Shown here in pieces: positions 375-39,561 of a DNA stretch of 64,000 nt. Position 1 is the first letter of the stretch. The number at the start of each line of letters is the position of its first letter. This stretch comes from an uncultured Candidatus Saccharibacteria bacterium (GTDB lineage Bacteria > Patescibacteriota > Minisyncoccia > Phycocordibacterales > XYD1-FULL-46-19): contig CAZZPK010000003.1 of NCBI GenBank assembly GCA_964655995.1, positions 22,960 to 86,959 on the forward strand, given 5' to 3'. Below the pieces are notes generated by a model, which did no database searches, was not told the DNA's origin, and saw only the letters and a list, made by a program, of their open reading frames with translations. Made by a program: the position numbers and the translations under genes.

Positions 375-1409
375 ATGAAGGCGAAATTTTTTACCGCAGT
401 ACTTGCAATTCTCGTTTCGACCATGGCCTCGGCTGGCATCGCCGGCACGGCAGTCTGTTGTGGCGGAGTTGACAGCGAGCAGGCGGCGCGAGCCTTTATC
501 TTGCGCGAGCAAGTCGCGCAGTATTGGGGGTACGCCGGTTTTACCCGCGTGTTAGGTGACGGCTCCAAAGAGCACGTCACGCAGGAATTCCGTCTCGGTC
601 AAGATCTCCGAGTTACTTACTTGGCGATCTGGGTCGATGACGGCCCCACTGTCGTCGTGATCGACGAAGGCGACAAACCACTAGATGGTTTGCCGGCTAA
701 CGAGGTGGGCACGGCCACACAGTTCTATTTGTGGCTCAATGCCTACGATAAAGCGGGGTACCCTGTCGCTTATGGCGGTACGGAGACAATCCCTCTGCTT
801 TTGCCGGGTGACCCGATTATGGTCACGCTTAGGCCGGAGTGGCTGGAGGAGTTTCTCTCATTCCAATTGCCGGCGGGAGCGGATGTGCGCGACGTTGTAC
901 TGTGGATGGGTGACCGCCCAACATACTACGACGAGTATCGAGGCGGGTTTAGTGTTTGGTACGATCCGCTTGACGACCTCGATTATGAGATTGTCAACAT
1001 GCGTACCGGCGAGCGTTATCAGTCCGGTCAAATCGATGTCCCGGCTCCGGCTGGCGACTCGCTGATCAGCGTCAAGTTGATTGGCGGAGTCGAGGAGATG
1101 TTCCTCGACGACAACACCTTCTACTCTCAACAAGAGAGTCTGGATGGCGCTGTCGAGAGAGATGGCGAGATGGTCCCAGCCAAGGTCTACATGGCCCGGC
1201 CACAGGGATTGAATTTCTACGTCTCGACTAGTAATGGTCTCGGCATCGAGATCCGAGCCGTAACTGAATCGGGTGAGGTGGTGCTAGTTGCCTCGAATCA
1301 AGAATCGGGCAACGCATGGCTTTATCTCCCTCCCGGGTTTGACAGGGTGATCGTGACGATCACCGGCGATACGGCTCAGGACTTTTACGTCTGGGCCGAG
1401 CGCTTCTAA
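375..1409 (+). CDS. secreted hypothetical protein (signal peptide MKAKFFTAVLAILVSTMASA)
   Basis: 344-aa ORF with an N-terminal signal-peptide-like segment; a hairpin plus T-tract terminator follows at about 1424-1460. Confidence 0.55.
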   Translation: MKAKFFTAVLAILVSTMASAGIAGTAVCCGGVDSEQAARAFILREQVAQYWGYAGFTRVLGDGSKEHVTQEFRLGQDLRVTYLAIWVDDGPTVVVIDEGDKPLDGLPANEVGTATQFYLWLNAYDKAGYPVAYGGTETIPLLLPGDPIMVTLRPEWLEEFLSFQLPAGADVRDVVLWMGDRPTYYDEYRGGFSVWYDPLDDLDYEIVNMRTGERYQSGQIDVPAPAGDSLISVKLIGGVEEMFLDDNTFYSQQESLDGAVERDGEMVPAKVYMARPQGLNFYVSTSNGLGIEIRAVTESGEVVLVASNQESGNAWLYLPPGFDRVIVTITGDTAQDFYVWAERF

Positions 1410-1423
1410 CCCCTATTTTGTTC

Positions 1424-1460
1424 TCTGGACCCCCGTCTGCTTTGCAGGCTGGGGTCTTGT
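1424..1460 (+). terminator. intrinsic terminator after the 375..1409 CDS
   Basis: ccccgtctgc-tttg-caggctgggg stem followed by tcttgtttttt. Confidence 0.5.
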
Positions 1461-1512
1461 TTTTTATACAACTATAATATATAGTAGTCGGGTACTAAAT
1501 AAATAAGCCCAT

Positions 1513-1671
1513 ATGTCGCAAGACCATTTAATCAAATTAACCTGCAAAAATTGCAAGCGGATCAACTACTGGAGTCGCAAAAATCGCAAGCGGGTAGAGC
1601 GCAAAATCGAGCTCAAAAAATACTGCAAGTGGTGCAAAAAGCAAACCACCCATAACGAGTCCAAAAAATAG
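1513..1671 (+). CDS. rpmG: 50S ribosomal protein L33 (absent from the supplied ORF track, below its size cutoff)
   Basis: Translation is MSQDHLIKLTCKNCKRINYWSRKNRKRVERKIELKKYCKWCKKQTTHNESKK, 52 aa. The CxxC...CxxC zinc ribbon and the LELKKYC core are typical of L33. Confidence 0.8.
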   Translation: MSQDHLIKLTCKNCKRINYWSRKNRKRVERKIELKKYCKWCKKQTTHNESKK

Positions 1672-1697
1672 GCTGGAAGACAGCCTATTTTTGTGCC
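1672..1697 (+). terminator. intrinsic terminator after rpmG
   Basis: ggctggaagacagcc hairpin followed by tatttttg. Confidence 0.55.
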
Positions 1698-1712
1698 ATA
1701 CTAACTTTACTT

Positions 1713-1786
1713 GGGTCCATAGTTTCAATGGTAAAACAGCGGTCTCCAAAACCGTCGTTCCCCGTTCGAGTCGGGGTGGACCCGCC
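1713..1786 (+). tRNA. tRNA-Trp (anticodon CCA)
   Basis: Cloverleaf GGGTCCA...TGGACCC acceptor stem, T-arm GTTCGAGTC, anticodon loop cTCCAaa. Confidence 0.85.
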
Positions 1787-1812
1787 TAGATTTGTGTTAT
1801 CATTAAAATTAC

Positions 1813-4158
1813 ATGGCTATGCCAAATTTTGAAAAACCATCAAATGATGAAAAGATACCGGAAATGAAGTTGATGTCCAATAAGAAGCCTAAAGAACTTA
1901 AATTGCCTGAGGTTATCGAATTACCCGATCTGCGTACCAAAGAGGAGCGCCTGATGGACAAGCGTATCGAGAGAGTGAGGAAAAAAATGGGTAAGCCGCC
2001 GCTAGGTTTACGCGCTCGTTATCCAATCACACCTGATACTCCTAAAGTAGAAGAGTCTAAGCCAAAACTCCGTCCGTCAGCCAATAAGCCGCGGCCACCA
2101 GTTCGCCGGCGCATACCACCGCCCCACGAGGTTACTGAGTATGATGATCAAGGTGATCCGGTCAGTTATTTAAAATCAATAGTTAAAAAGAAAAGTCGCT
2201 TATCTAAAAAGCCGGTTAAGCCACCGGCAAAATCTCAACCCAAATCCCAAAAAGCAAAAGCTAAAAACCCCAAGACCGTTGAGGAGGTCTATCAACAAAT
2301 GTTGATCGATGCCAAAAGAGGTAAAATTAAACCGCCGGAAGACTTGCCGATAGGCGATCCGTTTGATCTGAAAGTTCCCGCTTTTACCAAACCCAAAGAA
2401 GTGCCATTAACCGAGGAAGAGGAAAAATATTTTGAAACGCCGGAAATTAAATCCGTGGTAGATGAGGACATCAGCGAGCCGGAGCATGGCCCAGCAGAGT
2501 ACGAGCATGATTTGGAAGAGATGGATTATAATGAAGAATCTTCTATAACGCCAGAACATATACCACCGTCTGTTAGTCGACGTCCAACTCAAAAATCTAA
2601 AGTGCCGTCGCATTTGCCGGAGGTTGAAGTGGTCGAGCCTACCGCTCCGGTTTATCAAGAAAAAGACTTAGAAGAGGTTTTGCGTATTGGCCACGATAAT
2701 AGAAGAGACCGCGAGCGTGAAGCACAATTTGTTTTAGAGGCCGAGCGTCGGGCCATTGATCCACAAGGTCTAGATCAACCTATTTTAAAAGGTACTCCGG
2801 AGGGTGATGCTTTTGAAGCCTTGCGCGCAAAAGAAAAAGAATTAGAAACTCCCGAAATGCCACCATCTTTGCCAGAGATTAAGCCGGAGGTTGAGAGAGT
2901 GGATGAGGATTTTGGACGAATGATGGGAGAGAAGCCGGTTGGGGAGGAGGCTAAACAGTCGGCGTGGAAGAAGTTTAAGGAGGCTGGCGCCGATTTGGGT
3001 GGCGCCATCGCCGACGAGATTAAAGAAAAGTTTAAGCCGGTGGGCGAGAGATTGCAGAGCGGCGCCGAGAGGGCGGTCAATGCTTGGCGCTTTGCTCGCG
3101 AGCGGGTCAAGGGTGTGGCCACCTTCGGCTTTTGGGAGGTGCATGAGGCGGAATATTTGCGTTCGGAGGTTAAGGGTGTGTCTAAAGAGGCCAGTCGTAA
3201 TACCAAATTATTACAACGAGAACAAAATTTAACTTACGATGATGAGCATGAGGAAGCTAACCGAATGAATAATCTCTATGACCAGTTGGGTATTGAGGAG
3301 CGTAACGCTTTGCCGCCACAGGAATTGTATCGCAATATGGCCAACTGGGTTTCAGCGGAAAAGATCAGTCAAAATAAAGAAATTGAGCAAGAGTTGGTTG
3401 ACGGTGCTCTAAGTACTTTGCGCGAGCGTTTTGCCAAAAAAGTCGATTTTCGTGGCCGGCCGATTTTAACTGAAGAGAAATTATTTAATATTGAGTCCGA
3501 GTTGCGCCGAACCGCTTCCGTTGCTCGTTATACTCAAATTGACCGCGATATTATTAATTACAATAAATTAATCCGCAAAAATCTCGATCCGGAGTGGTAT
3601 CGGCGCTATGTGGCCGGCGGCATCGAGTTTGCATTGGCGAGTGTCGCTTTGGGAGCCGTTGCTTATACAAGCAGCGCCAAGATCGGCGCATGGTGGGGCG
3701 GCCGTATGGCCAAAAAAGCGCTCGGTACTGGTGTTAAACAGGCGGCTGAGCGAGTAATGCACGCCGATGCGCCAACCGGCACCGGCAGTAGTTACGTCCA
3801 AGATCTTATTAAAAAATTCCTTACTCCCACAGCCGCCGGCGGGGTGGAGTTGGAGGATTTGCCCATGCCCGACGAGGAGCTAATAGATAAAGGCGACAAT
3901 ATTTGGAATATTACCAAAGATTATTTGTCTAACCATGGCATTAAAAATCCGACCAATGCTCAAATTTTGGAGGCGGCCAAAGAGGTCGCCAAAGAGAACA
4001 ATATCGCGGTTAAAGAGTGGGGCATTAGCGGCGAGATCTCTGATAGGCAGTTACGTCCCGGTAAAGTCTTGTCGCTTAAGAGTTTAGCCGCCAAGGCGGC
4101 GCTCTTGGCCGGCAAAAAAGCAGTCAAAGCCGCGGTTAATATTGCAATGGAATCTTAA
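1813..4158 (+). CDS. large hypothetical protein, Lys/Pro-rich low-complexity N-terminal third, one predicted TM segment near residue 600
   Basis: 781-aa ORF; strongly biased N-terminal composition (KPK/PPV runs); hydrophobic stretch GGIEFALASVALGAVAYTSSAKIGAWWGG; no recognisable catalytic motif. Confidence 0.55.
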   Translation: MAMPNFEKPSNDEKIPEMKLMSNKKPKELKLPEVIELPDLRTKEERLMDKRIERVRKKMGKPPLGLRARYPITPDTPKVEESKPKLRPSANKPRPPVRRRIPPPHEVTEYDDQGDPVSYLKSIVKKKSRLSKKPVKPPAKSQPKSQKAKAKNPKTVEEVYQQMLIDAKRGKIKPPEDLPIGDPFDLKVPAFTKPKEVPLTEEEEKYFETPEIKSVVDEDISEPEHGPAEYEHDLEEMDYNEESSITPEHIPPSVSRRPTQKSKVPSHLPEVEVVEPTAPVYQEKDLEEVLRIGHDNRRDREREAQFVLEAERRAIDPQGLDQPILKGTPEGDAFEALRAKEKELETPEMPPSLPEIKPEVERVDEDFGRMMGEKPVGEEAKQSAWKKFKEAGADLGGAIADEIKEKFKPVGERLQSGAERAVNAWRFARERVKGVATFGFWEVHEAEYLRSEVKGVSKEASRNTKLLQREQNLTYDDEHEEANRMNNLYDQLGIEERNALPPQELYRNMANWVSAEKISQNKEIEQELVDGALSTLRERFAKKVDFRGRPILTEEKLFNIESELRRTASVARYTQIDRDIINYNKLIRKNLDPEWYRRYVAGGIEFALASVALGAVAYTSSAKIGAWWGGRMAKKALGTGVKQAAERVMHADAPTGTGSSYVQDLIKKFLTPTAAGGVELEDLPMPDEELIDKGDNIWNITKDYLSNHGIKNPTNAQILEAAKEVAKENNIAVKEWGISGEISDRQLRPGKVLSLKSLAAKAALLAGKKAVKAAVNIAMES

Positions 4159-4163
4159 AAATT

Positions 4164-4508
4164 ATGACTATCATGACCATCGCACAAAAAGCAGAAAAGA
4201 TTGGTGAGTTGCTCGCCGCCTCGCCGATCAGCGAGGAGCTTAAGACGGCGATTTTAAATAATTTGGGCGAGATGCCCGAGCGGGCGCTCGATGCTTTACT
4301 TACAGCTTTAACCAACGAGCATCAGCTGTTTGGCAATTTGGCCCTGGAGCTTGAAAAATTCACCGCTCACCAAAACGAGTATTGGCGCGACCTGGAGGAG
4401 GAGCAGCGTGAGGCCGTCGATGATGTGGTGGCCAAGCACGTTCGGGAGCTCGAGGAGGAGCTCACTAAAAGTGATTTGCGCAGCTCTTTAGACAAGTTGA
4501 CAAGCTAG
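4164..4508 (+). CDS. hypothetical acidic protein
   Basis: 114-aa ORF immediately after the 781-aa gene; 3' end overlaps the miaA stop convergently. Confidence 0.35.
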   Translation: MTIMTIAQKAEKIGELLAASPISEELKTAILNNLGEMPERALDALLTALTNEHQLFGNLALELEKFTAHQNEYWRDLEEEQREAVDDVVAKHVRELEEELTKSDLRSSLDKLTS

Positions 4509-5355
4509 GCGATTTAAGCCAGACAATTTGGTGATTACTTTTAAACCAAGTGCGTTGCCGCTTGGCAAAGCGCCAAATATCCTGCTCTAACTCTTTTACC
4601 AGTTCTTGTTTACTGATTTTGCCCTGGAGATGGCGGGCCACCGAGCGATACTCTAAGCCCAGCTCCCCAAGCCTTTTCCAGCTCAAGCCTTGCTGGTGCA
4701 ATTTTTTAACTTCGGCCACCAGCCCCTGCTTGAGGCGCGCCGTCAGCCGCCTGTTTATTTTTTGTTTTAAAATCTGATCGGGTAAATCAAGGCCGATAAA
4801 CAGCGGCTCATACTCGGGTTTGGCTTTAAGCTTAGGCACTCGGCCCAAAGCGCGCGCAATCTCAATGGCTCGGATCAGGCGGCGGGGATTATGCCGGTCG
4901 ATAGTTTTAGCCCGGGCGGGGTCAAGGGCGCGCAGTTTTTGGTACAGTTGGTCGGTTGGTAATTTGGCCAGGATTGCTCGCAATTTGTCATTGGGCGGCA
5001 CCTCGGGCCAAACGAGCCCGCCAACCAAAGCGTCGATATAAAAGCCGGTGCCGCCGACGATAATCGGCGTTTTGTTCTTCTTGATTATTTTAGCAATCGC
5101 TTTCTCGCCTAATTTTTTAAATTGATTTGCCGTAAAGCGCTTTTTAGGCGAGGCGACGTCCAAGAGATAGTGGGGGACGCCCTCCATTTCTTTCTTGCTG
5201 ATTTTTCCACTGCCGATGTTTAGGCCGCGGTAAACTTGGCGCGAGTCGGCCGAGATCACTTCGCCACCTATTTTTTTAGCCAGTTTTACCGCCAAGGCGC
5301 TTTTGCCGGTGGCGGTTGGGCCCACTATAACGATGATTTTTGGTTTAGTCTCCAC
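4465..5355 (-). CDS. miaA: tRNA dimethylallyltransferase
   Basis: P-loop GPTATGKS, the DSRQVYRGLNIGSGK motif and the overall MiaA layout. Confidence 0.85.
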   Translation of the reverse strand: METKPKIIVIVGPTATGKSALAVKLAKKIGGEVISADSRQVYRGLNIGSGKISKKEMEGVPHYLLDVASPKKRFTANQFKKLGEKAIAKIIKKNKTPIIVGGTGFYIDALVGGLVWPEVPPNDKLRAILAKLPTDQLYQKLRALDPARAKTIDRHNPRRLIRAIEIARALGRVPKLKAKPEYEPLFIGLDLPDQILKQKINRRLTARLKQGLVAEVKKLHQQGLSWKRLGELGLEYRSVARHLQGKISKQELVKELEQDIWRFAKRQRTWFKSNHQIVWLKSPSLSTCLKSCANHF

Positions 5356-5378
5356 CCTGCCACCGTAGCGTAAATAAA

Positions 5379-5410
5379 GAGCGCCGGCAAGGTGCAGCGC
5401 ACCTTGCCGG
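5379..5410 (-). terminator. intrinsic terminator (perfect 13-bp stem) downstream of the 5419..5757 transcript
   Basis: ccggcaaggtgcgctgcaccttgccgg followed on the minus strand by CGCUCUUUAUUU. Confidence 0.5.
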
Positions 5411-5418
5411 CTTAAATT

Positions 5419-5757
5419 CTAAAACCAAATTTCGGTATTGTCCTTATAAAGGCATACTTGCACTTCCTGTACTACTGGCCCGTCAACGGCGAGCAGCACG
5501 AGCCATCTCGGTTTGGCAAAGCCCAGACTATGCAGTCCGTCAGCCAATTGGCCGCGCTCCTCGTTCGTCATCAGTCGGCATTGTCCCGGCAAAATAAATT
5601 GGACCACCGACTGTCGGGATAATTTAAGCAAACAGCGCCGGAGCCTGGGGTTTCTGATTAAGGAATGAGCCCCGCGGATTTTTGACTTCCGTCGCCCTCT
5701 TTTTCTTTGTTGCTGGTCGTCTGTCGCCCAAAAGGGCACTACCGCATCTGCCGCCAT
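5419..5757 (-). CDS. hypothetical Arg-rich protein (it could instead be a non-coding transcript)
   Basis: 112-aa ORF; a perfect hairpin ccggcaaggtgc-gc-gcaccttgccgg (5379..5410) and a U-tract on the minus strand lie immediately downstream, supporting a transcript that ends here. Confidence 0.3.
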   Translation of the reverse strand: MAADAVVPFWATDDQQQRKRGRRKSKIRGAHSLIRNPRLRRCLLKLSRQSVVQFILPGQCRLMTNEERGQLADGLHSLGFAKPRWLVLLAVDGPVVQEVQVCLYKDNTEIWF

Positions 5758-5829
5758 ACTGCCTCCTTCTGGGGCACATTCTCGCCCCGCTATGATCTGA
5801 TTTGATTATAGCTAAATAGCCCCAATTGT

Positions 5830-6087
5830 CTAATTTTTAAAATATTTAGCTAACTGCTTCTTAATAAATCGATGCCCGGCGCCACTTTTTAAAAATTTTT
5901 CTCTTCCTAAGGCATCACCTTTATTTAAATACATTTCAGCATAAATGAGTTTTAGCTCGTTTTTAGTACTAGTGTAAGGGCTATGTTTTCTCTTGTGGTC
6001 TTTTAATCTTTGCTTTAAATCATGAGTAAAGCCAATATACCAGGTTTTATCAACTTGATCTTCAAGTATATACACAACAAAAGACAT
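5830..6087 (-). CDS. GIY-YIG nuclease family protein (UPF0213-like), in an AT-rich segment
   Basis: VVYILEDQVDKTWYIGFTHDLKQRLKDH is a GIY-YIG motif; about 33% GC against about 55% in the flanks. Confidence 0.65.
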   Translation of the reverse strand: MSFVVYILEDQVDKTWYIGFTHDLKQRLKDHKRKHSPYTSTKNELKLIYAEMYLNKGDALGREKFLKSGAGHRFIKKQLAKYFKN

Positions 6088-6227
6088 GCTCGTAAAATAA
6101 AATGGACTGACCCCATTTTATCACGAGCCACCTAAAACACTTGGTTACCTGTGGTCGCGCCAAACTTAATCTAGTTTTTGTGGCTGCGCCACGTGACACG
6201 TAGCGTCCTCGCTTTACGTGTTTTACG

Positions 6228-6314
6228 TGGTGCCGCGGGAGAGACTCGAACTCTCACAATCTTGCGATTAATAGATTTTGAGTCTATCGCGTCTACCAAT
6301 TCCGCCACCGCGGC
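6228..6314 (-). tRNA. tRNA-Leu (anticodon CAA), long variable arm, CCA encoded
   Basis: The reverse complement reads GCCGCGGTGGCGGAATTGGTAGACGC...cTCAAaa...GGTTCGAGTCTCTCCCGCGGCACCA. Confidence 0.85.
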
Positions 6315-6366
6315 AATACTCTGCCATCTTAGCAATTTTTAGCCCAAAATCAAACATGTTACAATA

Positions 6367-7323
6367 ATGCCAATGGAGCCCATTTCCCGCGGCGACTCGA
6401 TCTTTTGGATCGAGGTCGACAAAATCAAAGCCAACCCCTTCCAGCCTCGGCATGAGTTTAACGAGGATCGTTTGCGCGATTTGGCCGACTCGATCCGCCA
6501 ATACGGCGTACTCCAGCCTTTGGTAGTGACGCGCAAGGAGATTGAGCGCGAGGACGGCGGCCTCTCGGTGGAGTACGAGCTCATTGCCGGCGAGCGGCGT
6601 CTCCGCGCCTCTAAAATTGCCGGCATTAGCCAAGTGCCCGCTATTATCAAAAGCGGCGAGCAGACCGATAAGATGAAGTTGGAGCTCGCGATTATCGAGA
6701 ACCTCCAGCGCGAGGATCTTAATCCGCTCGATCGGGCGCAAGCGTTCCATCAACTGGTCAACGAGTTTGGCCTCAAACACACCGAGGTGGCCAAGCGCGT
6801 GGGCCGCAGCCGCGAGTACGTCTCCAACACCTTGCGCCTGCTTGCTTTGCCGCAGGTGGCGCTCGACGCTTTAATGTCCGGCCAAATTACCGAGGGCCAT
6901 ACTCGGCCGATTTTAATGTTGGTGGATCGGCCGGAGGAGCAGTTGGCCTTATTCCACGAGATCGTGACCAAGCGCTTAAATGTCCGCGAGTCCGAGCAAA
7001 TTGCCCGTCGCATCGCCTACGACAAAGTGCGCAAAAAAGACACTTTTATCCCGCCGGAGATCATTGAGTTGGAGGAGAAATTGACGGAAAAATTCGGTAC
7101 CCGGGTCAAGGTCGACCGCAAAGACAAGGGCGGGCGAGTGACCATCGACTTTTTTTCCGACGCTGATTTGCGGCACATTTTAGACTTGATGGCTCAAAGC
7201 GCCGAGGCCGCTCCGACTGCCGAGGCCGCCGAGGGTGATCAACAGGAGTCCGACCAGCCGCCGGCGGCGGAGCCCGCGGCGGGCGACGACGAGCTTTACT
7301 CCGTCAGGCATTTTTCCCTTTAA
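6367..7323 (+). CDS. parB: ParB-like partition/nucleoid-associated protein with an acidic C-terminal tail
   Basis: ParB box GERRLRASKIAG and an HTH; no parA/soj is adjacent. Confidence 0.8.
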   Translation: MPMEPISRGDSIFWIEVDKIKANPFQPRHEFNEDRLRDLADSIRQYGVLQPLVVTRKEIEREDGGLSVEYELIAGERRLRASKIAGISQVPAIIKSGEQTDKMKLELAIIENLQREDLNPLDRAQAFHQLVNEFGLKHTEVAKRVGRSREYVSNTLRLLALPQVALDALMSGQITEGHTRPILMLVDRPEEQLALFHEIVTKRLNVRESEQIARRIAYDKVRKKDTFIPPEIIELEEKLTEKFGTRVKVDRKDKGGRVTIDFFSDADLRHILDLMAQSAEAAPTAEAAEGDQQESDQPPAAEPAAGDDELYSVRHFSL

Positions 7324-8765
7324 TTTAATTTTTGGAGATAAGATTTGATATGTTTGCGGGCAAGGCCGGTTTTGACGTGCTCGAGCCACTTTACCGACGG
7401 CCGATTAGACTTTTTAGTCTCAATTAAGATCACGTCATCGTTTTTAAGTACTGTGGTGAGAGCCACAAATTTGCCGTTAACGGTAGCGCCGCTGGCGTGA
7501 TCGCCGATCTCGGAGTGGATCGCATAGGCAAAATCAAGCGCCGTGGCGCCGACCGGCAGCTCAATCACGTCGCCCTTGGGGGTAAAGACAAAAATCCGAT
7601 CCTCAAAAAAGTCGGTTTTAAGCGCGGTCAAATAATCCTCCGAGTGTTGGGCCTCTTTTTGCCATTCCAGCAATTTGTTAAGCCAGGCGAGCTTGGGGTC
7701 GTTTAGGCGCGGCTTTTTGGCTTTGCCGTTTTCGTCATAAATTAAGTGGGAGGCCAGGCCATACTCGGCCTCCTCATGCATATCCTCGGTCCTGATCTGG
7801 ATCTCGGCCATACTGCCGTCGCCGGCAAAGATGGTGGTATGGATGCTTTGATAACCGTTGGGTTTGGGATTGGCAATATAGTCTTTGAGGCGGCCGGAGA
7901 CCGGTTTCCATAAAGTGTGGATGAGGCCTAATACTTGGTAGCAGTCGGCCACCGTCGGCACAATCACTCGCAGGGCCGAGATGTCGTAAATCTGATCGAT
8001 ATTCATTTGGTGGCGCTTTAATTTTTCGTACAGACTATAAAGATACTTGATCCGATATTCGATCTTGATGTCCTTGATCCCTTGGGCTACGGCCTCGCGC
8101 GAGAGAGTGCGATACAATTTCTCTAGCCGCTTAATGCTCTCGCGGCCTTTGGTTTTGCGGAGAGCGGTGACCGCGGCGTACTCTTTAGGGTAAGCGTAGG
8201 GGAAGGCGCCGTCCTCCAAAGCGCCTTTGATCTTCCACATCCCGAGGCGATTGGCGAGCGGGGCGTATATCTCAAGCGTTTCCAGCGCGATCCGCTTTTG
8301 CTTGTCTTTGGGGACATGTTGGAGAGTGCGGATATTGTGCAGGCGATCAGCCAAGCGGATCATGATTACCCGCAGATCTTTGGCCATGGCGACAAATAAT
8401 TTACGCAAGCTCTCAACGTGGCGTTCGACGCCCTGGTATTTTAATTGGCCGAGTTTGGTTACCCCGTCCACCAAAAAGGCGACAGTCTCGCCAAATTCTC
8501 TAACCAAATCGTCGCGCGTTACCGTCGTGTCCTCTAAAACATCATGGAGCAGTCCGGCGGCGATAGTCTCATTGTCGGTCCGGAGGCCGGCTAAGATTTT
8601 GGCCACTTCGAGCGGGTGGGCGATATACTCCTCGCCGGAGAGGCGTTTTTGCCCGTCATGAGCCTTGAGAGCAAAGTGGTAGGCGCGCTCGATTAGTCCA
8701 CTGTCGGTATTTAGAGGCAATAAGTCGATTAACTCTTTAATTTGTGGGGATGGTGATTGGGGCAT
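7320..8765 (-). CDS. rel: bifunctional (p)ppGpp synthetase/hydrolase, short Rel/SpoT form (HD hydrolase, synthetase and TGS domains)
   Basis: HD motif HDVLEDT, synthetase motifs (RLKDYIANPKPNGYQSIHT) and a TGS-like C-terminus. Confidence 0.8.
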   Translation of the reverse strand: MPQSPSPQIKELIDLLPLNTDSGLIERAYHFALKAHDGQKRLSGEEYIAHPLEVAKILAGLRTDNETIAAGLLHDVLEDTTVTRDDLVREFGETVAFLVDGVTKLGQLKYQGVERHVESLRKLFVAMAKDLRVIMIRLADRLHNIRTLQHVPKDKQKRIALETLEIYAPLANRLGMWKIKGALEDGAFPYAYPKEYAAVTALRKTKGRESIKRLEKLYRTLSREAVAQGIKDIKIEYRIKYLYSLYEKLKRHQMNIDQIYDISALRVIVPTVADCYQVLGLIHTLWKPVSGRLKDYIANPKPNGYQSIHTTIFAGDGSMAEIQIRTEDMHEEAEYGLASHLIYDENGKAKKPRLNDPKLAWLNKLLEWQKEAQHSEDYLTALKTDFFEDRIFVFTPKGDVIELPVGATALDFAYAIHSEIGDHASGATVNGKFVALTTVLKNDDVILIETKKSNRPSVKWLEHVKTGLARKHIKSYLQKLN

Positions 8766-10954
8766 GTTTTGTCGCTGCAGCGCTCGGGGATGGTCTTGGT
8801 GCCCGTCATCATTAAGTGAGGGCAGGGACCCTGCTCGCGGGGGTAACCACAGATTTTGCCCGTCGGTTTGCTTTTAATAATATGTTTGCATTTGGGGTAA
8901 TTAGAGCAACCGTAAAAGAGGCCAAAGCGGCCGCGCTTCTCTACCATGGTACCTGATTTGCAAATCGGGCAGGTCACGCCGGTGTCACCCTGCTTCTCCG
9001 CATTCTCATCTTTTTTAATAAATTTGCATTTAGGGTAGCGACTGCAAGCCACAAACATACCGTAACGCCCCTCGCGCGAGACCAATTTGCCTTGGCCACA
9101 CTCCGGGCACATCTCGCCCGTCTCTTTGGGGCCCTCTAGCACATTACCTTCCAGGGTCCGGGCGCCGGTGCAGTCGGGGAAGCGGGCGCAACTGTAAAAC
9201 TTGCCGGTGCGGCCCAATTTAATAATCATTTTGCCGCCACATTCAGGACACTTCATCTCCGCCGGAGCGGGGCCCAAGTCGGTAATTTTAGGAATGTCTT
9301 TTTTCTCCTTTACCGCTTTGGTAAACGGTGTGTAAAAATCTTTTAAGGTTTTGGCGTACTCGCGTTTGCCGGCGGCAATCTCGTCGAGCTCATTTTCCAT
9401 CTCGGCGGTAAAGGAGTCGCTGATGTAATTGCCAAAATGATTCTCCAAAAAAGTGCTGACCACCTCGCCGGTCTCGGTGGGCTTGAGTGCGCGGCCGTCC
9501 TTCTCCACATAGCCGCGGTCAATAATGGTTTTGATGATGCTTGCATAAGTGCTGGGACGGCCGATGCCCCGCTTCTCAAGCTCTTTAACCAAACCGGCCT
9601 CGGTATAGCGCGGTGGCGGCAGAGTCTCTTTGCCCTCGGACTCTAGTTTAAGGAGCTTGGCCTCGTCGCCGACATTTACTTTGGGGAGCTCCACCTCCTC
9701 GCCGCGGGCTGCCGGGTCGGCCAGGAGCCAGCCCGGGGCGATCACGCGCGAGCCATTGGTGGCATAAAGCGGCACTCGAACATCGCTGGCCTTTAAAGTG
9801 ATTTTAGTCCGCTTGATTATCGCCGCCGGCATTTGGCTCGAGATGGCGCGCTGCCAAATGAGCTCGTAGAGCTTTTTTTCTTGAGCGCTAGCGCCGGCAC
9901 TTTTAACTAGAGCGTGAGTGGGGCGGATGGCCTCGTGGGCCTCCTGAGCATTTTTACTTTTTGTTTGATAAGCGTGTCGCTCAAATAAATTAGCGCCAAA
10001 TTGTTTGGCGATGGCCTGCTCGATCTCGGCAATGGCCACCGTACTTAAATTAGTACTGTCGGTGCGCATATAGGTAATGTGTCCGGCCTCGTAAAGTTTT
10101 TGAGCCAGGCGCATGGTGACGCTTGGCGAGTAGCCCAAGCGCGAGGAGGCCGTCTGTTGGAGGGTGGAGGTGGTAAACGGCGCGCGTGGCTGGCGCTTGG
10201 CCTCGCTCTCCTCCACATCATTAATTTGCCAAGTTGATTTTTGGCCACAAGCAACGATGTCGAGTGCCTCAGCCTCGGTCTTGGGCTCGACAGTGCAAGT
10301 GGCGGGCATCTCGGTACCGTCTTTCAGTTTAAAGAGTCCGGTAAGGACCCAAAAGGCCTCGGGGATAAAGGCTTTAATTTCGCGCTCGCGCTCGACTAAA
10401 ATGCGGAGCGCCGGCGATTGGACGCGCCCGGCCGAGAGGCCGTAGCGCACCTTTTGCCAAATGAGGCCCGACAAGTCGTAGCCGAACAAACGATCTAAAA
10501 CTCGACGAGCTTCTTGAGCTCGGCGGAGGTCGTCGTCAATGTCCCGCGGATTTTTAATCGCCTCCTGCACGGCCTCTTTAGTAATCTCATGGAAGACAAC
10601 CCTCTTAAGTTTGTTATTTGTTATTTCGGATTTTTTATTTCCGAGATTTAAAATCTCGGCGACGTGCCAAGCAATAGCCTCGCCCTCGCGATCCGGGTCG
10701 GTGGCCAGTAAGATCTCGCTAGACTTTTTAGCCAAGCTTTTTAAATCACTAACCACTTTCTCCTTCCCCTTGCTGATCTCGTAGTGGGGGATAAAGCCGC
10801 CTTTAATATCAATGGCGTTTTTATTTGATTTAGGCAGATCGCGAATGTGGCCCACCGACGCGCGGACGGTGTACTCATTATTTAAATATTTCGCAATCGT
10901 CTTGGCCTTCGCCGGTGACTCGACAATTAACAATTTTATTCCATTAGCGCTCAT
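8729..10954 (-). CDS. topA: DNA topoisomerase I with C-terminal multi-zinc-ribbon repeats
   Basis: Toprim N-terminus (LLIVESPAKAKTI), active-site region, and four CxxC...CxxC ribbons at the C-terminus. Confidence 0.9.
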   Translation of the reverse strand: MSANGIKLLIVESPAKAKTIAKYLNNEYTVRASVGHIRDLPKSNKNAIDIKGGFIPHYEISKGKEKVVSDLKSLAKKSSEILLATDPDREGEAIAWHVAEILNLGNKKSEITNNKLKRVVFHEITKEAVQEAIKNPRDIDDDLRRAQEARRVLDRLFGYDLSGLIWQKVRYGLSAGRVQSPALRILVEREREIKAFIPEAFWVLTGLFKLKDGTEMPATCTVEPKTEAEALDIVACGQKSTWQINDVEESEAKRQPRAPFTTSTLQQTASSRLGYSPSVTMRLAQKLYEAGHITYMRTDSTNLSTVAIAEIEQAIAKQFGANLFERHAYQTKSKNAQEAHEAIRPTHALVKSAGASAQEKKLYELIWQRAISSQMPAAIIKRTKITLKASDVRVPLYATNGSRVIAPGWLLADPAARGEEVELPKVNVGDEAKLLKLESEGKETLPPPRYTEAGLVKELEKRGIGRPSTYASIIKTIIDRGYVEKDGRALKPTETGEVVSTFLENHFGNYISDSFTAEMENELDEIAAGKREYAKTLKDFYTPFTKAVKEKKDIPKITDLGPAPAEMKCPECGGKMIIKLGRTGKFYSCARFPDCTGARTLEGNVLEGPKETGEMCPECGQGKLVSREGRYGMFVACSRYPKCKFIKKDENAEKQGDTGVTCPICKSGTMVEKRGRFGLFYGCSNYPKCKHIIKSKPTGKICGYPREQGPCPHLMMTGTKTIPERCSDKTCPNHHPHKLKS

Positions 10955-11080
10955 GTGTTATGTAAGTATTACCTAAAACCTAGTATGTTAGCAAATTAGT
11001 TACGCTTCTAACTTTCTATATTATTGTATTTTATTAAATTGCTCCATTTTGCTGCCATGGCATTATTTTGGTGCAATTAG

Positions 11081-11109
11081 TTGACGAAAAATGATATTAG
11101 GTGTATAAT
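11081..11109 (+). promoter_or_regulatory. consensus sigma70 promoter (TTGACG, 17-nt spacer, TGn TATAAT) for the 11198 gene
   Basis: ttgacg-aaaaatgatattaggtg-tataat. Confidence 0.55.
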
Positions 11110-11197
11110 AGATAATGGATGGTGAATTGGTCCAAGTATATACTTGTCCCTATATCATTAAGATAAATGGCAAAATTCCAAAAAGGAGAAAAACGCC

Positions 11198-11851
11198 ATG
11201 TTTGACAGACAGACCAAGAAGTTTGCGTCCGCAGTAGTTGATGCTCTGCCGGAGGTGGATGAGGATGTAATGCAGGGTTGGATCGGTAACCCAAAGGCTT
11301 TGCAAGAAGTCTTAAAAAAGGCTCTTTGTCCGCCAAACCCAACTCCCTCGATCCTCGAGTTCATCTCGACGATCGTCATTCCCGCAACCACCGGCAAGTT
11401 CGTCGCTCGCGAGAAGTTCGTTCGTGACACTGGTCGCAAAGCCAAGGTCAAGATCAGCTATCTCGGCGACAACTTCACCGAATGGTTCCTCTCGGACTCC
11501 GGCAAAACCGAAGACCCGATCAGCGAACAAACCCTGCGCTACTCAAAACTGCGCAAGGCATCGGTGGACGGTCCAATCATCGCCGAACTCGGCGGTGCGG
11601 AGAAGTCGGAAACGACGCTCTCCGAGATGTTTGCCCTCATGGAAAAGCAGGGCAAGGGCGAAGATGGTGTTCTCCTGAACAACGGCTACGCCAACATCTT
11701 CTACATCAAGGACCAAAATGGTGTGTTGCGTACCGTCGTCGTCATCTGGATTGATGTCGGCTGGGATGTCGATGCGGACTCCGTCGGGGACCCGGGCAGT
11801 TGGCGTGATGGCCGTCAGGTGTTTTCCCGCAATTCTGTTCTCGAATCCTAG
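11198..11851 (+). CDS. hypothetical protein
   Basis: 217-aa ORF with a strong ribosome-binding site (aaaaaggagaaaaacgcc ATG) and the consensus promoter upstream. Confidence 0.5.
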   Translation: MFDRQTKKFASAVVDALPEVDEDVMQGWIGNPKALQEVLKKALCPPNPTPSILEFISTIVIPATTGKFVAREKFVRDTGRKAKVKISYLGDNFTEWFLSDSGKTEDPISEQTLRYSKLRKASVDGPIIAELGGAEKSETTLSEMFALMEKQGKGEDGVLLNNGYANIFYIKDQNGVLRTVVVIWIDVGWDVDADSVGDPGSWRDGRQVFSRNSVLES

Positions 11852-11942
11852 GAACCTTTGGCTCCGGCGCAAGCCTGATCCTTTGTCCCTTGAACACTTT
11901 GACCCTCGGTCTGCTTCGGCGGATTGGGGGTCATTTTTTTAT

Positions 11943-12806
11943 TTACACTAATCGTAATTCGCCTAAGCTTTCGATAATTAAGCCTTTGATTTCCATCATC
12001 GCTAAAGTGGCGTTGGCGTCGCCGGTGGCCAGGCCCGAGCGGGCGATCACTTCGTCACGCGGCAGCGGCTCTATAGTCAATAATTCTAAAATAATCTTTT
12101 CTTTATCGGAAGCGTTATCAAATAAAGTGGGCTGGCTAACCACGCCCACTTGTATCAAATCAAAGACATCTAAAATATGTTCCGGTTTAGTTACCACCGT
12201 GGCGCCGCGGCGGATCAATTCGTTAGTGCCGGCAGTGCTCGGGCTAAAAATGGATCCCGGTACGGCCAGCACCTCGCGGTTATACTCAAGCGCCAAGCGC
12301 GCCGTAATTAAAGTGCCCGACTTTTCGCCTGCCTCGATTACCAGTGTCGCTTTAGCCAAACCGGCCATTAAGCGATTGCGGCGAGGGAAGGTGTGCAAAC
12401 CCGCCGGCATTTTGGGCTCAAACTCGGAGACGAGTGCACCGCCGCCGGCCACGATCTCATCCGCTAGACGGCGATTAGAGTGGGGGTGTAAAACCTGGCG
12501 ATCGAGTCCCGAGCCGGGGAAGGCGATGGTGGGTAGCCGTGCTTTTAACGCCGCCTGGTGAGCAATGGTGTCTATACCTAACGCGAGTCCGGACACAATC
12601 GCTACCGGATAGCCGCGGAGGCCGGCAATCAACTTCTCGCACACCTCGCGGCCATACTGCGAGAATTTGCGCGAGCCCACCACTGTGAGTAAATGATACT
12701 CTGGTCCGGGCAAAGCGCCCTCAATAAATAGCTTGGCCGGCGGCTCGGGGATCTCGGCTAGGTACGGTGGGTAGTCGTCGGCTGCCAGCGTCCTAATCTC
12801 GGCCAT
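11943..12806 (-). CDS. dprA: DNA processing protein DprA (Smf)
   Basis: Canonical DprA N-terminus MAEIRTLAADDYPPYL starting at 12806 and the Rossmann-like core GLALGIDTIAHQAAL. The ORF-track extension to 13244 would overlap serS on the opposite strand and is taken as non-coding. Confidence 0.8.
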   Translation of the reverse strand: MAEIRTLAADDYPPYLAEIPEPPAKLFIEGALPGPEYHLLTVVGSRKFSQYGREVCEKLIAGLRGYPVAIVSGLALGIDTIAHQAALKARLPTIAFPGSGLDRQVLHPHSNRRLADEIVAGGGALVSEFEPKMPAGLHTFPRRNRLMAGLAKATLVIEAGEKSGTLITARLALEYNREVLAVPGSIFSPSTAGTNELIRRGATVVTKPEHILDVFDLIQVGVVSQPTLFDNASDKEKIILELLTIEPLPRDEVIARSGLATGDANATLAMMEIKGLIIESLGELRLV

Positions 12807-36464: not shown

Positions 36465-36500
36465 TCCTAACTTGAGACGGTCGTCTGAGATTAGGAAAGA
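36465..36500 (+). repeat. direct repeat copy 1 carrying the AGACGGTCGTC motif
   Basis: tgagACGGTCGTCtgagATTAGGAAAGAG, compared with 37058..37090 aaACGGTCGTCaaaaGTTAGGAAAGAG. Confidence 0.5.
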
Positions 36501-36501
36501 G

Positions 36502-37107
36502 CTAAGAAAGATTAAATATTTTCTTTAACCAGCTATCATTTTCTAAATAAGATACTTCCATATACAACACCTCTTTGCCAATATGATAGTTAGCCTTTAA
36601 TAGGGCTACTACTTCTTGGCAATCGTATGGATAAACCCAAACACTATTTTGGAGCCTTATTAAGCCTAAGTGCTGAAACCAAGCTCGCAATTTGTTTCTA
36701 GTGGATCGTTTCCATTCCTTAATATCAAAAATAATAATTCGATATTTACCATCCCAGCGTTTTGGTTTATTTATGGTTAATTTTTCTAACTCATATTCTT
36801 TTAACTTAATTTTGCCACTTTTGGTCAATCGGACAACTTTCTGTCTTTTACTATTATTTTCTATTTTAACTAAACCCTGTTTCTCTAGGCGGCCAACCAC
36901 TTGATTAATGTAATTCCTTTTCTTTGATTCTTGTTTTGGTAGAAAACGGAGTAATTTTAGGCAATTTGGTGCCACTACTGCTAAAGCAATAATCCCAGTT
37001 AGGCCAATAACACTAAGAATTATTTGTTGATAGTCTGAATTTGGTGATCTCATACCTATTCCTAAGTATAAACGGTCGTCAAAAGTTAGGAAAGAGGTGT
37101 TTGACAA
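36502..37107 (-). CDS. membrane-anchored PaaX-like wHTH regulator with a Cas2/VapD-fold middle domain, lacking the PaaX C-terminal domain
   Basis: N-terminal TM, wHTH (QVVGRLEKQGLVK...VVRLTKSGKIKL), then RWDGKYRIIIFDIKEWKRSTRNKLRAWFQHLGLIRLQNSVWVYP. This resembles the E. coli PaaX segment PPWDGKWLLLLSEGLD...LIWQGFG and the Cas2 consensus (YDI...R.Q.SVFE). AT-rich. Confidence 0.5.
   Translation of the reverse strand: MSNTSFLTFDDRLYLGIGMRSPNSDYQQIILSVIGLTGIIALAVVAPNCLKLLRFLPKQESKKRNYINQVVGRLEKQGLVKIENNSKRQKVVRLTKSGKIKLKEYELEKLTINKPKRWDGKYRIIIFDIKEWKRSTRNKLRAWFQHLGLIRLQNSVWVYPYDCQEVVALLKANYHIGKEVLYMEVSYLENDSWLKKIFNLS
37058..37090 (+). repeat. direct repeat copy 2 carrying the ACGGTCGTC motif
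   Basis: See copy 1; together they bracket the PaaX-like gene. Confidence 0.5.
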
Positions 37108-37162
37108 AAATTTAATAAAAAGGTTTACTTAAATTGGAAAATAAACAGGAGGGTCTCTAAAT

Positions 37163-37426
37163 ATGAGATTTACAGCTTTACTGATCGGGCGCTACTGGGT
37201 CGGGTTAATAAAGGAGCAGTCCCATCTAGTTGTTATTATCTTGGTACTTGGGTATCTAACCGTTGGTATTGCTCGGGTGCTCGAGTATGGTTGGGGCTCA
37301 ATTGGCGCCGGCCTCTTGGTTTATCTGATCTTTGTTCCTTTACTTTCTTCGTCTTGGAATTGGTTTTTAAGAAGGCTGATCCTTTATTGTCAAAAAAGAT
37401 CAGATGTTTTGGGCAATCAACAATAA
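37163..37426 (+). CDS. small membrane protein
   Basis: Ribosome-binding site aggagggtc; two hydrophobic helices. Confidence 0.4.
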   Translation: MRFTALLIGRYWVGLIKEQSHLVVIILVLGYLTVGIARVLEYGWGSIGAGLLVYLIFVPLLSSSWNWFLRRLILYCQKRSDVLGNQQ

Positions 37427-37437
37427 GGAGAAAAAAA

Positions 37438-37653
37438 ATGACGTTTTTGGCAATGATGTCATCGGGCTTGTGCTTGATGGCGATTTACCTCTCGATCTAT
37501 GTGCCGCAAAGCGGCGGGCTGATCGGGCTGATTTTGACCATTGCGATCCTAAACATTATGGCCTTGTGGGCATCACTGAAGCTGGGCATCGATTATCCTG
37601 GTCGGCCCCTCAATCTGACTGAGGTGATTGGCCAACGGTTTTGGGTGATGTAG
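37438..37653 (+). CDS. small membrane protein
   Basis: Ribosome-binding site aaggagaaaaaaa; MTFLAMMSSGLCLMAIYLSIYV... The track ORF 37291..37653 starts further upstream in the same frame. Confidence 0.4.
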   Translation: MTFLAMMSSGLCLMAIYLSIYVPQSGGLIGLILTIAILNIMALWASLKLGIDYPGRPLNLTEVIGQRFWVM

Positions 37654-37881
37654 CAAATCAAGCTCCGAGACGAGTCCACTGTCTTGGTGCTATCGCAGGG
37701 GCAAAAAATTTTATGCCTCTTGGTCCCTGGCGATTACGGCAATATGCCGGATTTCCCACTGGCCTCACTGGTAGAGGTAGTGGATCCGGGGCATAATCAA
37801 AAGCCTCAGATCAAGCAGGTCCACATAGACCTGCTCACCTAAAAGAAACTGGTTTTCTTGCGGATGGCCCAGCCATCCGCT

Positions 37882-38457
37882 TTATTTTTTGGTGACTAAC
37901 GACTGGGCATTGCCTTGGAGGCCGGTGGCGTCGCCCTCGAGACCGGAGACATTGCCCGAGAGGCCTGAGACATCCCCGGTAATATTGGTCACAATACCAG
38001 CAATGCGGCTAACATCGCCTTTAATATTAGTGACCGTGCCGGAGATATTGGTGGCATCGCCCGTGAGATCATCGACATTACCCACCAGGTCGCTGACATT
38101 GCCTTTTAGCTTGCTGGCATCGCCGCGGATATTGCTGACCGAGCCGCGGATAAAACTGACATTGCCCAAGAGGCCCGAGATATCGCCGGAGATATTGCTC
38201 ACATCGCCACGGAGAGGGGTTACGTCACCTTTAATGTTGCTAACATCGCCTTGGATTTTGGAGACATCGCCCAAAATGCCGGTAATATTGCCGCGGATGG
38301 CGCTGGCATCGCCGGTAATTTTATGGAGCGAGACGTCGCCGTAAATACCGTGGACGCTGCCGCGCAAATTGGCAAAATCGCCCCAGACATTGGGGTGGAG
38401 ATTGGTAACATTTTTGGTGTTAAGCTGGGTTTTGTTGGTGCTTGGTTGTAAGGTCAT
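37882..38457 (-). CDS. 7-residue tandem-repeat protein (about 22 consecutive GD[VAI]S.I. heptads)
   Basis: GDVSNIKGDVTPLRGDVSNISGDISGLLGNVSFIRGSVSNIRGDASKLKGNVSDLVGNV...; the DNA has a 21-nt periodicity across about 37930..38400. Confidence 0.55.
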   Translation of the reverse strand: MTLQPSTNKTQLNTKNVTNLHPNVWGDFANLRGSVHGIYGDVSLHKITGDASAIRGNITGILGDVSKIQGDVSNIKGDVTPLRGDVSNISGDISGLLGNVSFIRGSVSNIRGDASKLKGNVSDLVGNVDDLTGDATNISGTVTNIKGDVSRIAGIVTNITGDVSGLSGNVSGLEGDATGLQGNAQSLVTKK

Positions 38458-38552
38458 AATATGTAAATTATATCACCTTGACTTCAGATAGTAATATATG
38501 TATTATAAAAGTTGGGGATAACCGGTCTTTGACTAGGAAGGAGGTGCCGAAG

Positions 38553-38927
38553 GTGAAAACCCAACAAGTAGATATTAAGATGGATCAGGAGTTAAAGCAG
38601 AGGTCGTGGCTCATGTTGAGTCACCGAGGTCTTGATTTGGAGACCGCGACGATCCCTCAACTGCATGAGTACCTGACCGAGCTCGACGAGCAAATCTTTG
38701 TGGCGATCGGACTCGCGCTTAATGCTGGGGAGACGGAGATACCAGAGGCGGTGATAGAGGAGATCCGCAATTGTAATGCCGTGGTCAATTTTATCAATCG
38801 CCATCATTGGGCTCAAAACCCAAATACTCCCGCTTTGTTTTACCAACGGGAGTGGAAAATGGAATATTTTACCAAACCGGAAGAGAGGGCCAATGGTCGC
38901 CAACAAGGGGAAGCAACTTGTAATTAA
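38553..38927 (+). CDS. hypothetical protein
   Basis: A GTG start after ggaaggagg is preferred over the TTG at 38478; no recognisable motif. Confidence 0.35.
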   Translation: MKTQQVDIKMDQELKQRSWLMLSHRGLDLETATIPQLHEYLTELDEQIFVAIGLALNAGETEIPEAVIEEIRNCNAVVNFINRHHWAQNPNTPALFYQREWKMEYFTKPEERANGRQQGEATCN

Positions 38928-39039: not shown

Positions 39040-39561
39040 ATGCTACAATTGCCCATTATGACTTTAGGGACGCACGCGGCGGTGGGGGCGGTGGTGGCGG
39101 GCTTGGTGCCGGCTAATCCGGTACTTGGCTTTGGCTTGGCTTTTGCCAGCCACTTTGTTTTGGATATGATCCCGCACTGGGACTATCAGTTGGGATCGGC
39201 TAGGCGCGACGAGGACAATGCTCTTAACGACGATTTGGTAATTGGCCGCGCTTTTGTCTACGATTTGGCTAAAATCGGCACGGACTTTGCGCTCGGTTTA
39301 TTTGGTGCCCTTATCATTTTGGCCACTTTTTATGATTGGACAGTATGGACCTGGGTACTTGCGGGGGCAGTGGGCGGGGCGTTGCCCGATGCGCTCCAAT
39401 TTGCCTATTTTAAGTGCCGCCGCGAGCCGCTGGTCTCTCTGCAGCGCTTTCACCAATGGGTGCACACCAAAGTGCGTCTCGATGGCCGGCCGCTCTTAGG
39501 AGCCTCCCTGCAAGTATTATTGGCCGGGGTCGTCATCGGGGTGTATATTTTACTGTACTAG
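39040..39561 (+). CDS. hypothetical multi-pass membrane protein
   Basis: 173 aa with four or five hydrophobic helices. Confidence 0.45.
   Translation: MLQLPIMTLGTHAAVGAVVAGLVPANPVLGFGLAFASHFVLDMIPHWDYQLGSARRDEDNALNDDLVIGRAFVYDLAKIGTDFALGLFGALIILATFYDWTVWTWVLAGAVGGALPDALQFAYFKCRREPLVSLQRFHQWVHTKVRLDGRPLLGASLQVLLAGVVIGVYILLY

Follow-up and report, generated by a model that had tools for sequence, protein, structure and literature searches.

A conserved heptapeptide-repeat protein from a Patescibacteria genome is a candidate stand-alone coiled-coil rod

The gene at positions 37882–38457 of the window (the whole 64,000-nucleotide stretch of contig CAZZPK010000003.1, from an uncultured Candidatus Saccharibacteria bacterium, that we analysed) encodes a protein of 191 residues built of 23 units of the form G-[DN]-[VIA]-[ST]-x-[IL]-x. 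The gene is real and constrained, and gene calling on an independent Logan contig gave exactly the same protein. Judged by its sequence, the protein is a member of a large unannotated family of heptad-repeat proteins. We favour, with moderate confidence, reading it as a stand-alone rod, an alpha-helical coiled coil whose chains most probably form a parallel homotrimer.

A first-pass annotation of this DNA had described a protein made almost entirely of about 22 consecutive heptads, each starting with an invariant Gly-Asp. An open reading frame (ORF) lies at exactly the coordinates given there, and the heptad construction stood, with the count refined by register analysis: 20 heptads run in perfect register over residues 49–188, and three more units lie upstream (residues 26–48), the last of which, GDVSLHKIT, has 9 residues and shifts the register by 2. 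A non-repeat segment of 25 residues precedes them (Table 1). Glycine proved invariant, opening all 20 heptads of the unbroken array; in a protein with 15% Gly, 20 successive glycines spaced by 7 have a chance probability of about 3e-17 (0.15^20). Aspartate did not: of the 22 units scored, position 2 is D in 11 (about half), N in 5, and S, T or I in the others. Position 3 is V/A/I, position 4 S/T and position 6 I/L, with positions 5 and 7 variable, so that the hydrophobic positions 3 and 6 give the coiled-coil-like 3/4 spacing noted earlier. When units were compared by lag, similarity at lag 2 or lag 3 was not above that at lag 1, and no 14- or 21-residue super-period was found in the array. 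The earlier statement that the protein has neither a signal peptide nor a transmembrane segment also held, with a polar N terminus and a highest 19-residue Kyte–Doolittle mean of 0.87; the sequence contains no lipobox either. Because it carries no export signal, the protein is probably cytoplasmic.

The repeat had been taken for an exact tandem DNA repeat prone to copy-number variation, and neither part of that view survived. The 21-nucleotide units have a mean pairwise identity of 48% (maximum 86%), and Tandem Repeats Finder returned only three short patches with 71–90% matches; it is thus at the protein level that the periodicity is kept. Scanning one genome for each GTDB species yielded orthologs from Candidatus Vogelbacteria (locus L007; 191 residues, 84% identity), from a Paceibacterota metagenome-assembled genome (L008; 190 residues, 62%) and from two further metagenome-assembled genomes (L009 and L010; 189 and 191 residues, about 54%), together with remoter relatives in other Patescibacteria. 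The five co-linear orthologs, 52–84% identical, share the same start codon and align without a single internal gap, keeping all 23 units and the 9-residue irregularity. H45, I47 and G49 are invariant among them, as are N13, T14, N16 and H21 of the N-terminal segment. The repeat number is therefore fixed across orthologs, and at least four Patescibacteria genomes besides this one keep the gene at the same length.

Comparison with the L007 ortholog gave a ratio of nonsynonymous to synonymous substitution rates (dN/dS) of 0.06 at a dS of about 1.6, with 92 of the 130 nucleotide differences at third codon positions. The gene is thus under strong purifying selection. These observations make it very improbable that the ORF is a spurious product of periodic DNA or that it encodes a disordered low-complexity protein. 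Its composition is indeed of low complexity, and an antisense ORF of 151 residues also stays open across the repeat; against this stand the dN/dS of the sense frame, the concentration of substitutions at third positions, position-specific conservation among indel-free orthologs, and a -10 element and terminator of the gene's own. We rejected the antisense ORF as a gene: it is a by-product of periodic codons, seemingly 'conserved' at every orthologous locus only through its overlap with the real gene.

To assess the fold, we searched all PDB sequences with the single sequence, with an ortholog profile and with an idealised array. At E<=1 these searches returned 16, 43 and 30 matches, respectively, and every one is an alpha-helical coiled coil, with residues 49–188 as the matched region. 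The best matches are the P22-like tail needle gp26 and T4 fibritin (E = 1.8e-8 to 6e-11), led by gp26 (4lin; 1.8e-8, down to 6e-11). An archaeal SlaB-like stalk protein (8qox) is among the top matches at 6.6e-8, or 2.4e-6 with the single sequence, and the others include cavin-1 HR1, SadA fragments, reovirus sigma-1, the langerin neck and Lpp. Most of the best matches (gp26, the SlaB-like protein, cavin, fibritin, sigma-1, SadA and Lpp) are known parallel trimers. In the alignments, the solved structures hold the same heptads as the array, KGNISSLQGDVQA in fibritin 1avy and GEIASLQTNVSALDGRVTTAENNISALQ in gp26 4lin.

Unit by unit, the array is readily set in a coiled-coil register, which would place Gly at f, Asp/Asn at g, Val (or Ile/Ala) at a, Ser/Thr at b, a variable and small residue at c, Ile/Leu at d and a variable residue at e. 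The variable positions are then c and e and the conserved hydrophobics lie 3/4 apart, a pattern that reads as the signature of an a/d core. Such a core would be made of beta-branched residues at a and d, which under established coiled-coil rules (reportedly from Harbury et al. 1993) favour three-stranded packing. We infer a trimer from these beta-branched residues and from how the best PDB matches oligomerise. Relatives point the same way on the glycine: P0065 mixes GDITNIQ, TDVSNIQ and SEITNIN units, indicating that Gly at f is interchangeable with S/T/N. In the relative P0059, GDVTTLQ/GNVTTLQ runs occur within the stalk of a protein that Pfam identifies as a trimeric autotransporter (YadA_stalk at 9.7e-77, with YadA_anchor and YadA_head).

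Structure prediction, proposed in the first-pass annotation as a check, gave a divided answer. Without an alignment, AlphaFold2 predicted helix over residues 14–41 and 44–190 in 3 of 5 models (predicted local distance difference test score, pLDDT, of 88), with block means of 94–98 across residues 51–180 and a helix break at residues 42–43, exactly at the 9-residue unit. Proline is four-fold depleted inside heptad arrays. Foldseek searches of PDB and BFVD with the single-helix model gave no significant match, as expected for one long helix. With a 43-sequence alignment, AlphaFold2 instead returned scattered short beta-strands and no helix, at a pLDDT of 55; the MAFFT alignment behind this run spans 926 columns, with the repeats badly out of register.

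That second prediction is one of several points that weigh against a coiled coil. Classical helix formers are few, with G, S, T, N, D, V and I together making up 70% of the residues and A, E, L, K, M, Q and R 25%. Conservation is strongest for the Gly at f, a solvent-exposed position where a simple coiled coil has no need of it. Proline occurs at position c, in GDVTPLR here and in adjacent units in two orthologs; in relatives (P0018, P0098 and the L005 paralogs) it concentrates at unit positions 5 and 7, which is hard to fit to an uninterrupted helix, and 8-residue units such as GHINPGLT in relatives cannot be helical. In many relatives the array lies between a conserved N-cap and C-cap, as is the case for solenoid repeats, and in some Cys replaces Val in most units.

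Several of these features would be accounted for by a new heptapeptide beta-solenoid or beta-roll, an alternative that we regard as possible but unlikely. In such a fold, turns at the G-D/N pairs would alternate with short V-S-x-I-x strands, each coil would take up two or three heptads and the family's conserved N- and C-terminal motifs would act as caps, on the model of pentapeptide, hexapeptide and ryegrass ice-binding-protein repeats. An invariant Gly followed by Asp/Asn is a typical turn former, beta and turn formers abound in the protein, the AlphaFold2 run with an alignment contains short strands, and relatives have cap motifs, 8-residue Pro units and Cys-for-Val variants. However, the strand model has its low pLDDT and comes from the badly registered alignment; hydrophobics 3/4 apart with variable positions 5 and 7 misfit strand alternation; the array has no super-period of two or three heptads; the PDB matches at E<=1 include zero beta-solenoids; and fibritin and gp26 show these same heptads as helices. 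Searches at E<=1 found no Hexapep, Pentapeptide or Bactofilin match, and we rejected the bactofilin, hexapeptide (LbH) and pentapeptide families on this ground and on the period, which is strictly 7, not 6 or 5. The ryegrass ice-binding protein is a two-faced beta-roll of 14–15-residue coils built of 7-residue units. A roll of this type was rejected too, given the lack of a two-heptad super-period, the 3/4 spacing of the hydrophobics and the lack of any such PDB match. Of the earlier description of the protein as 'novel fibrous or beta-solenoid-like', then, the fibrous part stands, and a conventional alpha-helical coiled coil is favoured over a novel or beta-solenoid structure.

If the protein is a coiled-coil rod, its roughly 147–163 helical residues at 0.148 nm each would give a length of about 22–24 nm. 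Asp/Asn at g could pair with Lys/Arg at e, and a g-Asp with an e-Lys/Arg is present in several successive units. Gly, Ser/Thr and other small residues would line the outside as a smooth stripe. The fixed length, together with conservation of the ends and of individual units, suggests a structural element or spacer of defined length, not a freely expanding repeat, with the conserved N-terminal cap (residues 1–25) and C-terminal units (residues 154–188) as likely interaction sites. The rod would be made from its own promoter, on a monocistronic, near-leaderless transcript, and without an export signal.

By analogy, such a protein may work as coiled-coil segments do in phage fibres and needles, trimeric autotransporter adhesin stalks, Lpp and SlaB, and on sequence grounds it belongs to none of these families. 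T4 fibritin (1avy/1aa0) and P22-like gp26 (4lin, 2poh) share its heptad type, [G/S/T/N]-[D/N/E]-[I/V]-[S/T/A]-x-[L/I]-x: fibritin contains GNISSLQGDVQA, and gp26 contains GEIASLQ, TNVSALD, GRVTTAE and NNISALQ. In both, however, Gly occupies f in some heptads only, whereas it does so in all 23 units here, and their coiled coils are joined to functional ends (foldon, gp10-binding tip, virion attachment), whereas the window protein has little beyond the rod and is encoded by a chromosomal gene of a candidate phyla radiation (CPR) bacterium.

A relation to YadA-like stalks, which the first-pass annotation had raised, was found in part. The same GDVTTLQ/GNVTTLQ heptads run through the P0059 stalk, and SadA fragments (2wpr/2wpq) are among the PDB matches, but the heptad protein has no match to YadA_stalk (PF05662), PF05658 or PF03895 at E<=1. 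Trimeric autotransporter adhesins have a signal peptide and YadA domains; lacking both, the window protein is not a member. Patescibacteria are not known to have an outer membrane. In such adhesin stalks, two inserted residues that lengthen a unit to 9 are a known discontinuity, where beta-layers form (PMC4786415). We did not adopt this reading for GDVSLHKIT, which has Ile at beta3 where canonical motifs have D/N/T/S (PMC4786415).

Braun's lipoprotein Lpp (PF04728; 1eq7) and SlaB, from the S-layer stalk of archaea (8qox; NF040788), both form short trimeric coiled coils, with heptads of the x-D-V-x-x-L/x-x-I-S-x-L type. The window protein, in contrast, lacks a membrane anchor as well as a signal peptide and lipobox; one relative, L011, is a predicted lipoprotein with an LVAC lipobox. 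We rejected membership of Lpp: the whole protein reaches 29.3 bits against the LPP cut-off of 29.1, with zero stretches passing individually, and scores 18.4 against a cut-off of 108 for NF011925. Membership of SlaB was likewise rejected, at 29 bits against a cut-off of 700. The remaining Pfam near-matches, Baculo_PEP_C (36.2 bits, cut-off 38) and DUF1664 (31.3, cut-off 34.6), are, like LPP, generic coiled-coil families.

Another NCBIfam match far under its cut-off, RiPP_TigB (NF047709; residues 31–80, E=2e-7), raises a different idea, namely that the protein is a repeat precursor of a ribosomally synthesized and post-translationally modified peptide like TigB, with core motifs modified by a radical-SAM enzyme. 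We hold this to be extremely improbable. The score of 30.9 bits compares with a curated cut-off of 70, the several kilobases around the gene contain neither a radical-SAM gene nor another maturase gene, no conserved adjacent maturase gene was found in orthologous loci, and the protein is 191 residues long with unit-specific conservation among orthologs. In agreement with the first-pass annotation, which recognised no repeat family, no curated Pfam, NCBIfam or PADLOC model captures the protein, PADLOC giving zero family matches. No paper in the searchable literature contains its repeat strings (GDVSNI, GDVSGL and others), and the 'heptapeptide repeat' literature is unrelated, dealing mostly with the carboxy-terminal domain of RNA polymerase II.

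The family is nevertheless large. A word-indexed search with the heptad protein gave 53 clusters, and among 1.84 billion representatives at 50% identity, 3154 matched at E<=1e-3 and 461 at E<=1e-10. Arrays of at least 4 heptads occur in 118 of the 189 sequences fetched (median 14, maximum 56); their logo, for which Gly at position 1 was the criterion of selection, reads [D48 N20]-[V52 I17]-[S40 T27]-x-[L37 I34 V14]-x after Gly. Many members have an N-terminal cap like the 'NLHPNVWGDF' of the window protein, and the 'L-H-P-x-V-W-G-D' type of cap reaches distant members (P0071, P0078, P0098, P0099 and P0114). A C-terminal motif, G-N-L-D-x-C-x-[IL]-T-x-E-[ED]-R-x-x-G-I-D-I-x-D-L, is found in many members and is absent from the window protein. 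Members occur in Parcubacteria and in one Micrarchaeaceae archaeon, a tail-anchored one (P0033) occurs in Phyllobacterium, the podovirus MW202691 also encodes one, and some are fused to unrelated domains.

Two phage-like contigs hold clusters of paralogs. In L002 (GCA_003324335.1, contig QMCE01000841.1), five lie within 12.8 kb (495–12289) and share the C-terminal motif GNLDDCxLTxEDRENGIDINDLI; in L005, three (2424–6354) stand beside a Mu-type portal (Portal_Mu) and a ClpP protease. Unit number differs among these paralogs, at roughly 8–28 motif-matching units each, and many of their units carry Cys for Val (GDCSxLx). Eight-residue units of the form G-x-[IV]-x-P-x-L-x (GHINPGLT, GEITPNLR) recur in register in the L005 paralogs and in P0018 and P0098.

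These phage-like settings bear on whether the window gene, instead of encoding a cellular structural protein, derives from a phage, as a fibre or needle module that the host has captured or as what remains of a prophage; we judge this improbable. Besides the paralog clusters and the podovirus member, the best PHROG match is to a 'minor head protein' family (5e-14), followed by a tail needle, and tblastn matches fall in phage tail-fibre, needle and YadA-like proteins. Yet the phage matches are restricted to generic heptads at 24–30% identity, with one exception among those listed, podovirus H7, at 41%, and a profile scan of viral contigs gave only three distant matches, at 25–28% identity. The G+C content of the gene, about 50%, equals that of its surroundings; its neighbours in the window are the housekeeping genes uvrB, tgt, pyruvate kinase and SIMPL, with no phage or defence genes nearby in the gene list and family matches; and its constant length across Patescibacteria and low dN/dS also argue against a captured module or remnant.

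A broader reading, which we consider unlikely, is that the array is not a plain coiled coil but a new repeat fold or assembly with an as yet undescribed function in host–virus interaction in ultra-small prokaryotes. It could take the form of a heptapeptide solenoid between the family's N-cap and C-cap, or of a glycine-faced coiled coil packing laterally into sheets or tubes; with either, CPR/DPANN organisms and their phages would carry a widespread and diversifying family, with paralog clusters, variable unit numbers and Cys-rich variants. The stakes differ between the readings. If the coiled-coil reading holds, the protein is one more fibrous rod, though a clean natural case of Gly at every f, almost without classical helix formers, and of some interest for coiled-coil design; it also draws attention to an unannotated family, with thousands of metagenomic members, that merits a Pfam entry. 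A new solenoid fold or lateral-assembly module would matter more: having expanded in phage-like contigs of ultra-small prokaryotes, it would point to an uncharacterised host–virus interface.

Table 1. Features of the heptad-repeat gene and of its surroundings, in window coordinates
Feature	Positions	Strand	Description	Basis
PaaX-like gene	36502-37107	-	winged helix and Cas2-like central domain	PF20803, 1.2e-17
Hairpin	37860..37880	.	G+C-rich, 9 pairs, starts 2 nt past the stop codon	terminator scan and sequence
Coding sequence of heptad-repeat protein	37882..38457	-	complete, 191 residues plus stop	ORF list, ATG to TAA
Antisense ORF	37889-38344	+	151 residues, stays open across the repeat	
Unbroken heptads	37894..38313	-	residues 49-188, twenty units G-[DN]-[VIA]-[ST]-x-[IL]-x	register analysis and orthologs
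Leading units	38314..38382	-	residues 26-48: GDFANLR, GSVHGIY, GDVSLHKIT	register analysis
N-terminal non-repeat segment	38383..38457	-	residues 1-25, motif NT.N[VI]T.[LI]H..[IV][WF] into the first GDF unit	five orthologs
Extended -10 element	38467..38475	-	TGATATAAT, 9 nt between its end and the ATG	sequence
Membrane-protein gene	39040-39561	+	173 residues, multi-pass, weakly YdjM/DUF457-like	sole recurrent neighbour, 3 genomes

The gene is flanked by putative expression signals of its own (Table 1). The extended -10 element TGATATAAT was not reported by a consensus promoter scan because it has no -35 match; TG.TATAAT is kept upstream of the L007 and L008 orthologs. The hairpin beyond the stop codon is likely a bidirectional terminator. 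From these signals, the mRNA would be monocistronic and near-leaderless.

The gene neighbourhood offered little purchase on function, and we rejected inference from it: neighbours differ between orthologous loci, among them tgt, phosphoketolase, BipA, UppP and others. The earlier identification of a PaaX-like neighbour was confirmed by its PF20803 match; the same gene scores 29.6 bits against a cut-off of 24.5 for TIGR01573 (cas2), over only 38 residues. The link implied between the heptad gene and this gene with its two tiny membrane ORFs was not sustained. All three lie in a low-GC island (36500–37650; 33–39% against about 50%) that has no counterpart next to the closest ortholog: in L007 the heptad gene directly abuts a tgt homologue, with uvrB, the PaaX-like gene and the small ORFs not adjacent. 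The window's neighbour genes are syntenic with L007 at 67–87% identity (mostly 73–85%), so that the source of the window is a Vogelbacteria-like member of the Patescibacteria (CPR). The only neighbour to recur is the 173-residue membrane protein, with counterparts at L007 4949–5467 and L008 3610–4116 in differing orientations.

Two relatives show other arrangements of the array. A 311-residue Patescibacteria homologue (L011 5893–6828) has well over 30 heptads, a lipoprotein-type signal (…LSLVAC) and a Pro/Ala/Ser linker, and its rod is predicted to be anchored on the cell surface. The metagenomic P0114 (550 residues) has an N-terminal heptad array, with the same N-cap as the window protein, that continues in frame to a signal-peptide-like segment and a secretin (Secretin at 4.2e-19, Secretin_N); it is either a true fusion or two neighbouring genes merged by the gene caller.

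Divergent from the heptad gene, the ORF at 38478–38927 (+), of 149 residues and called as 124 in L001, matches no family. Its identity with the ORF in the same position in L007 is only 31%, against 80–85% for the flanking genes; it is either a fast-evolving gene or a replaced one.

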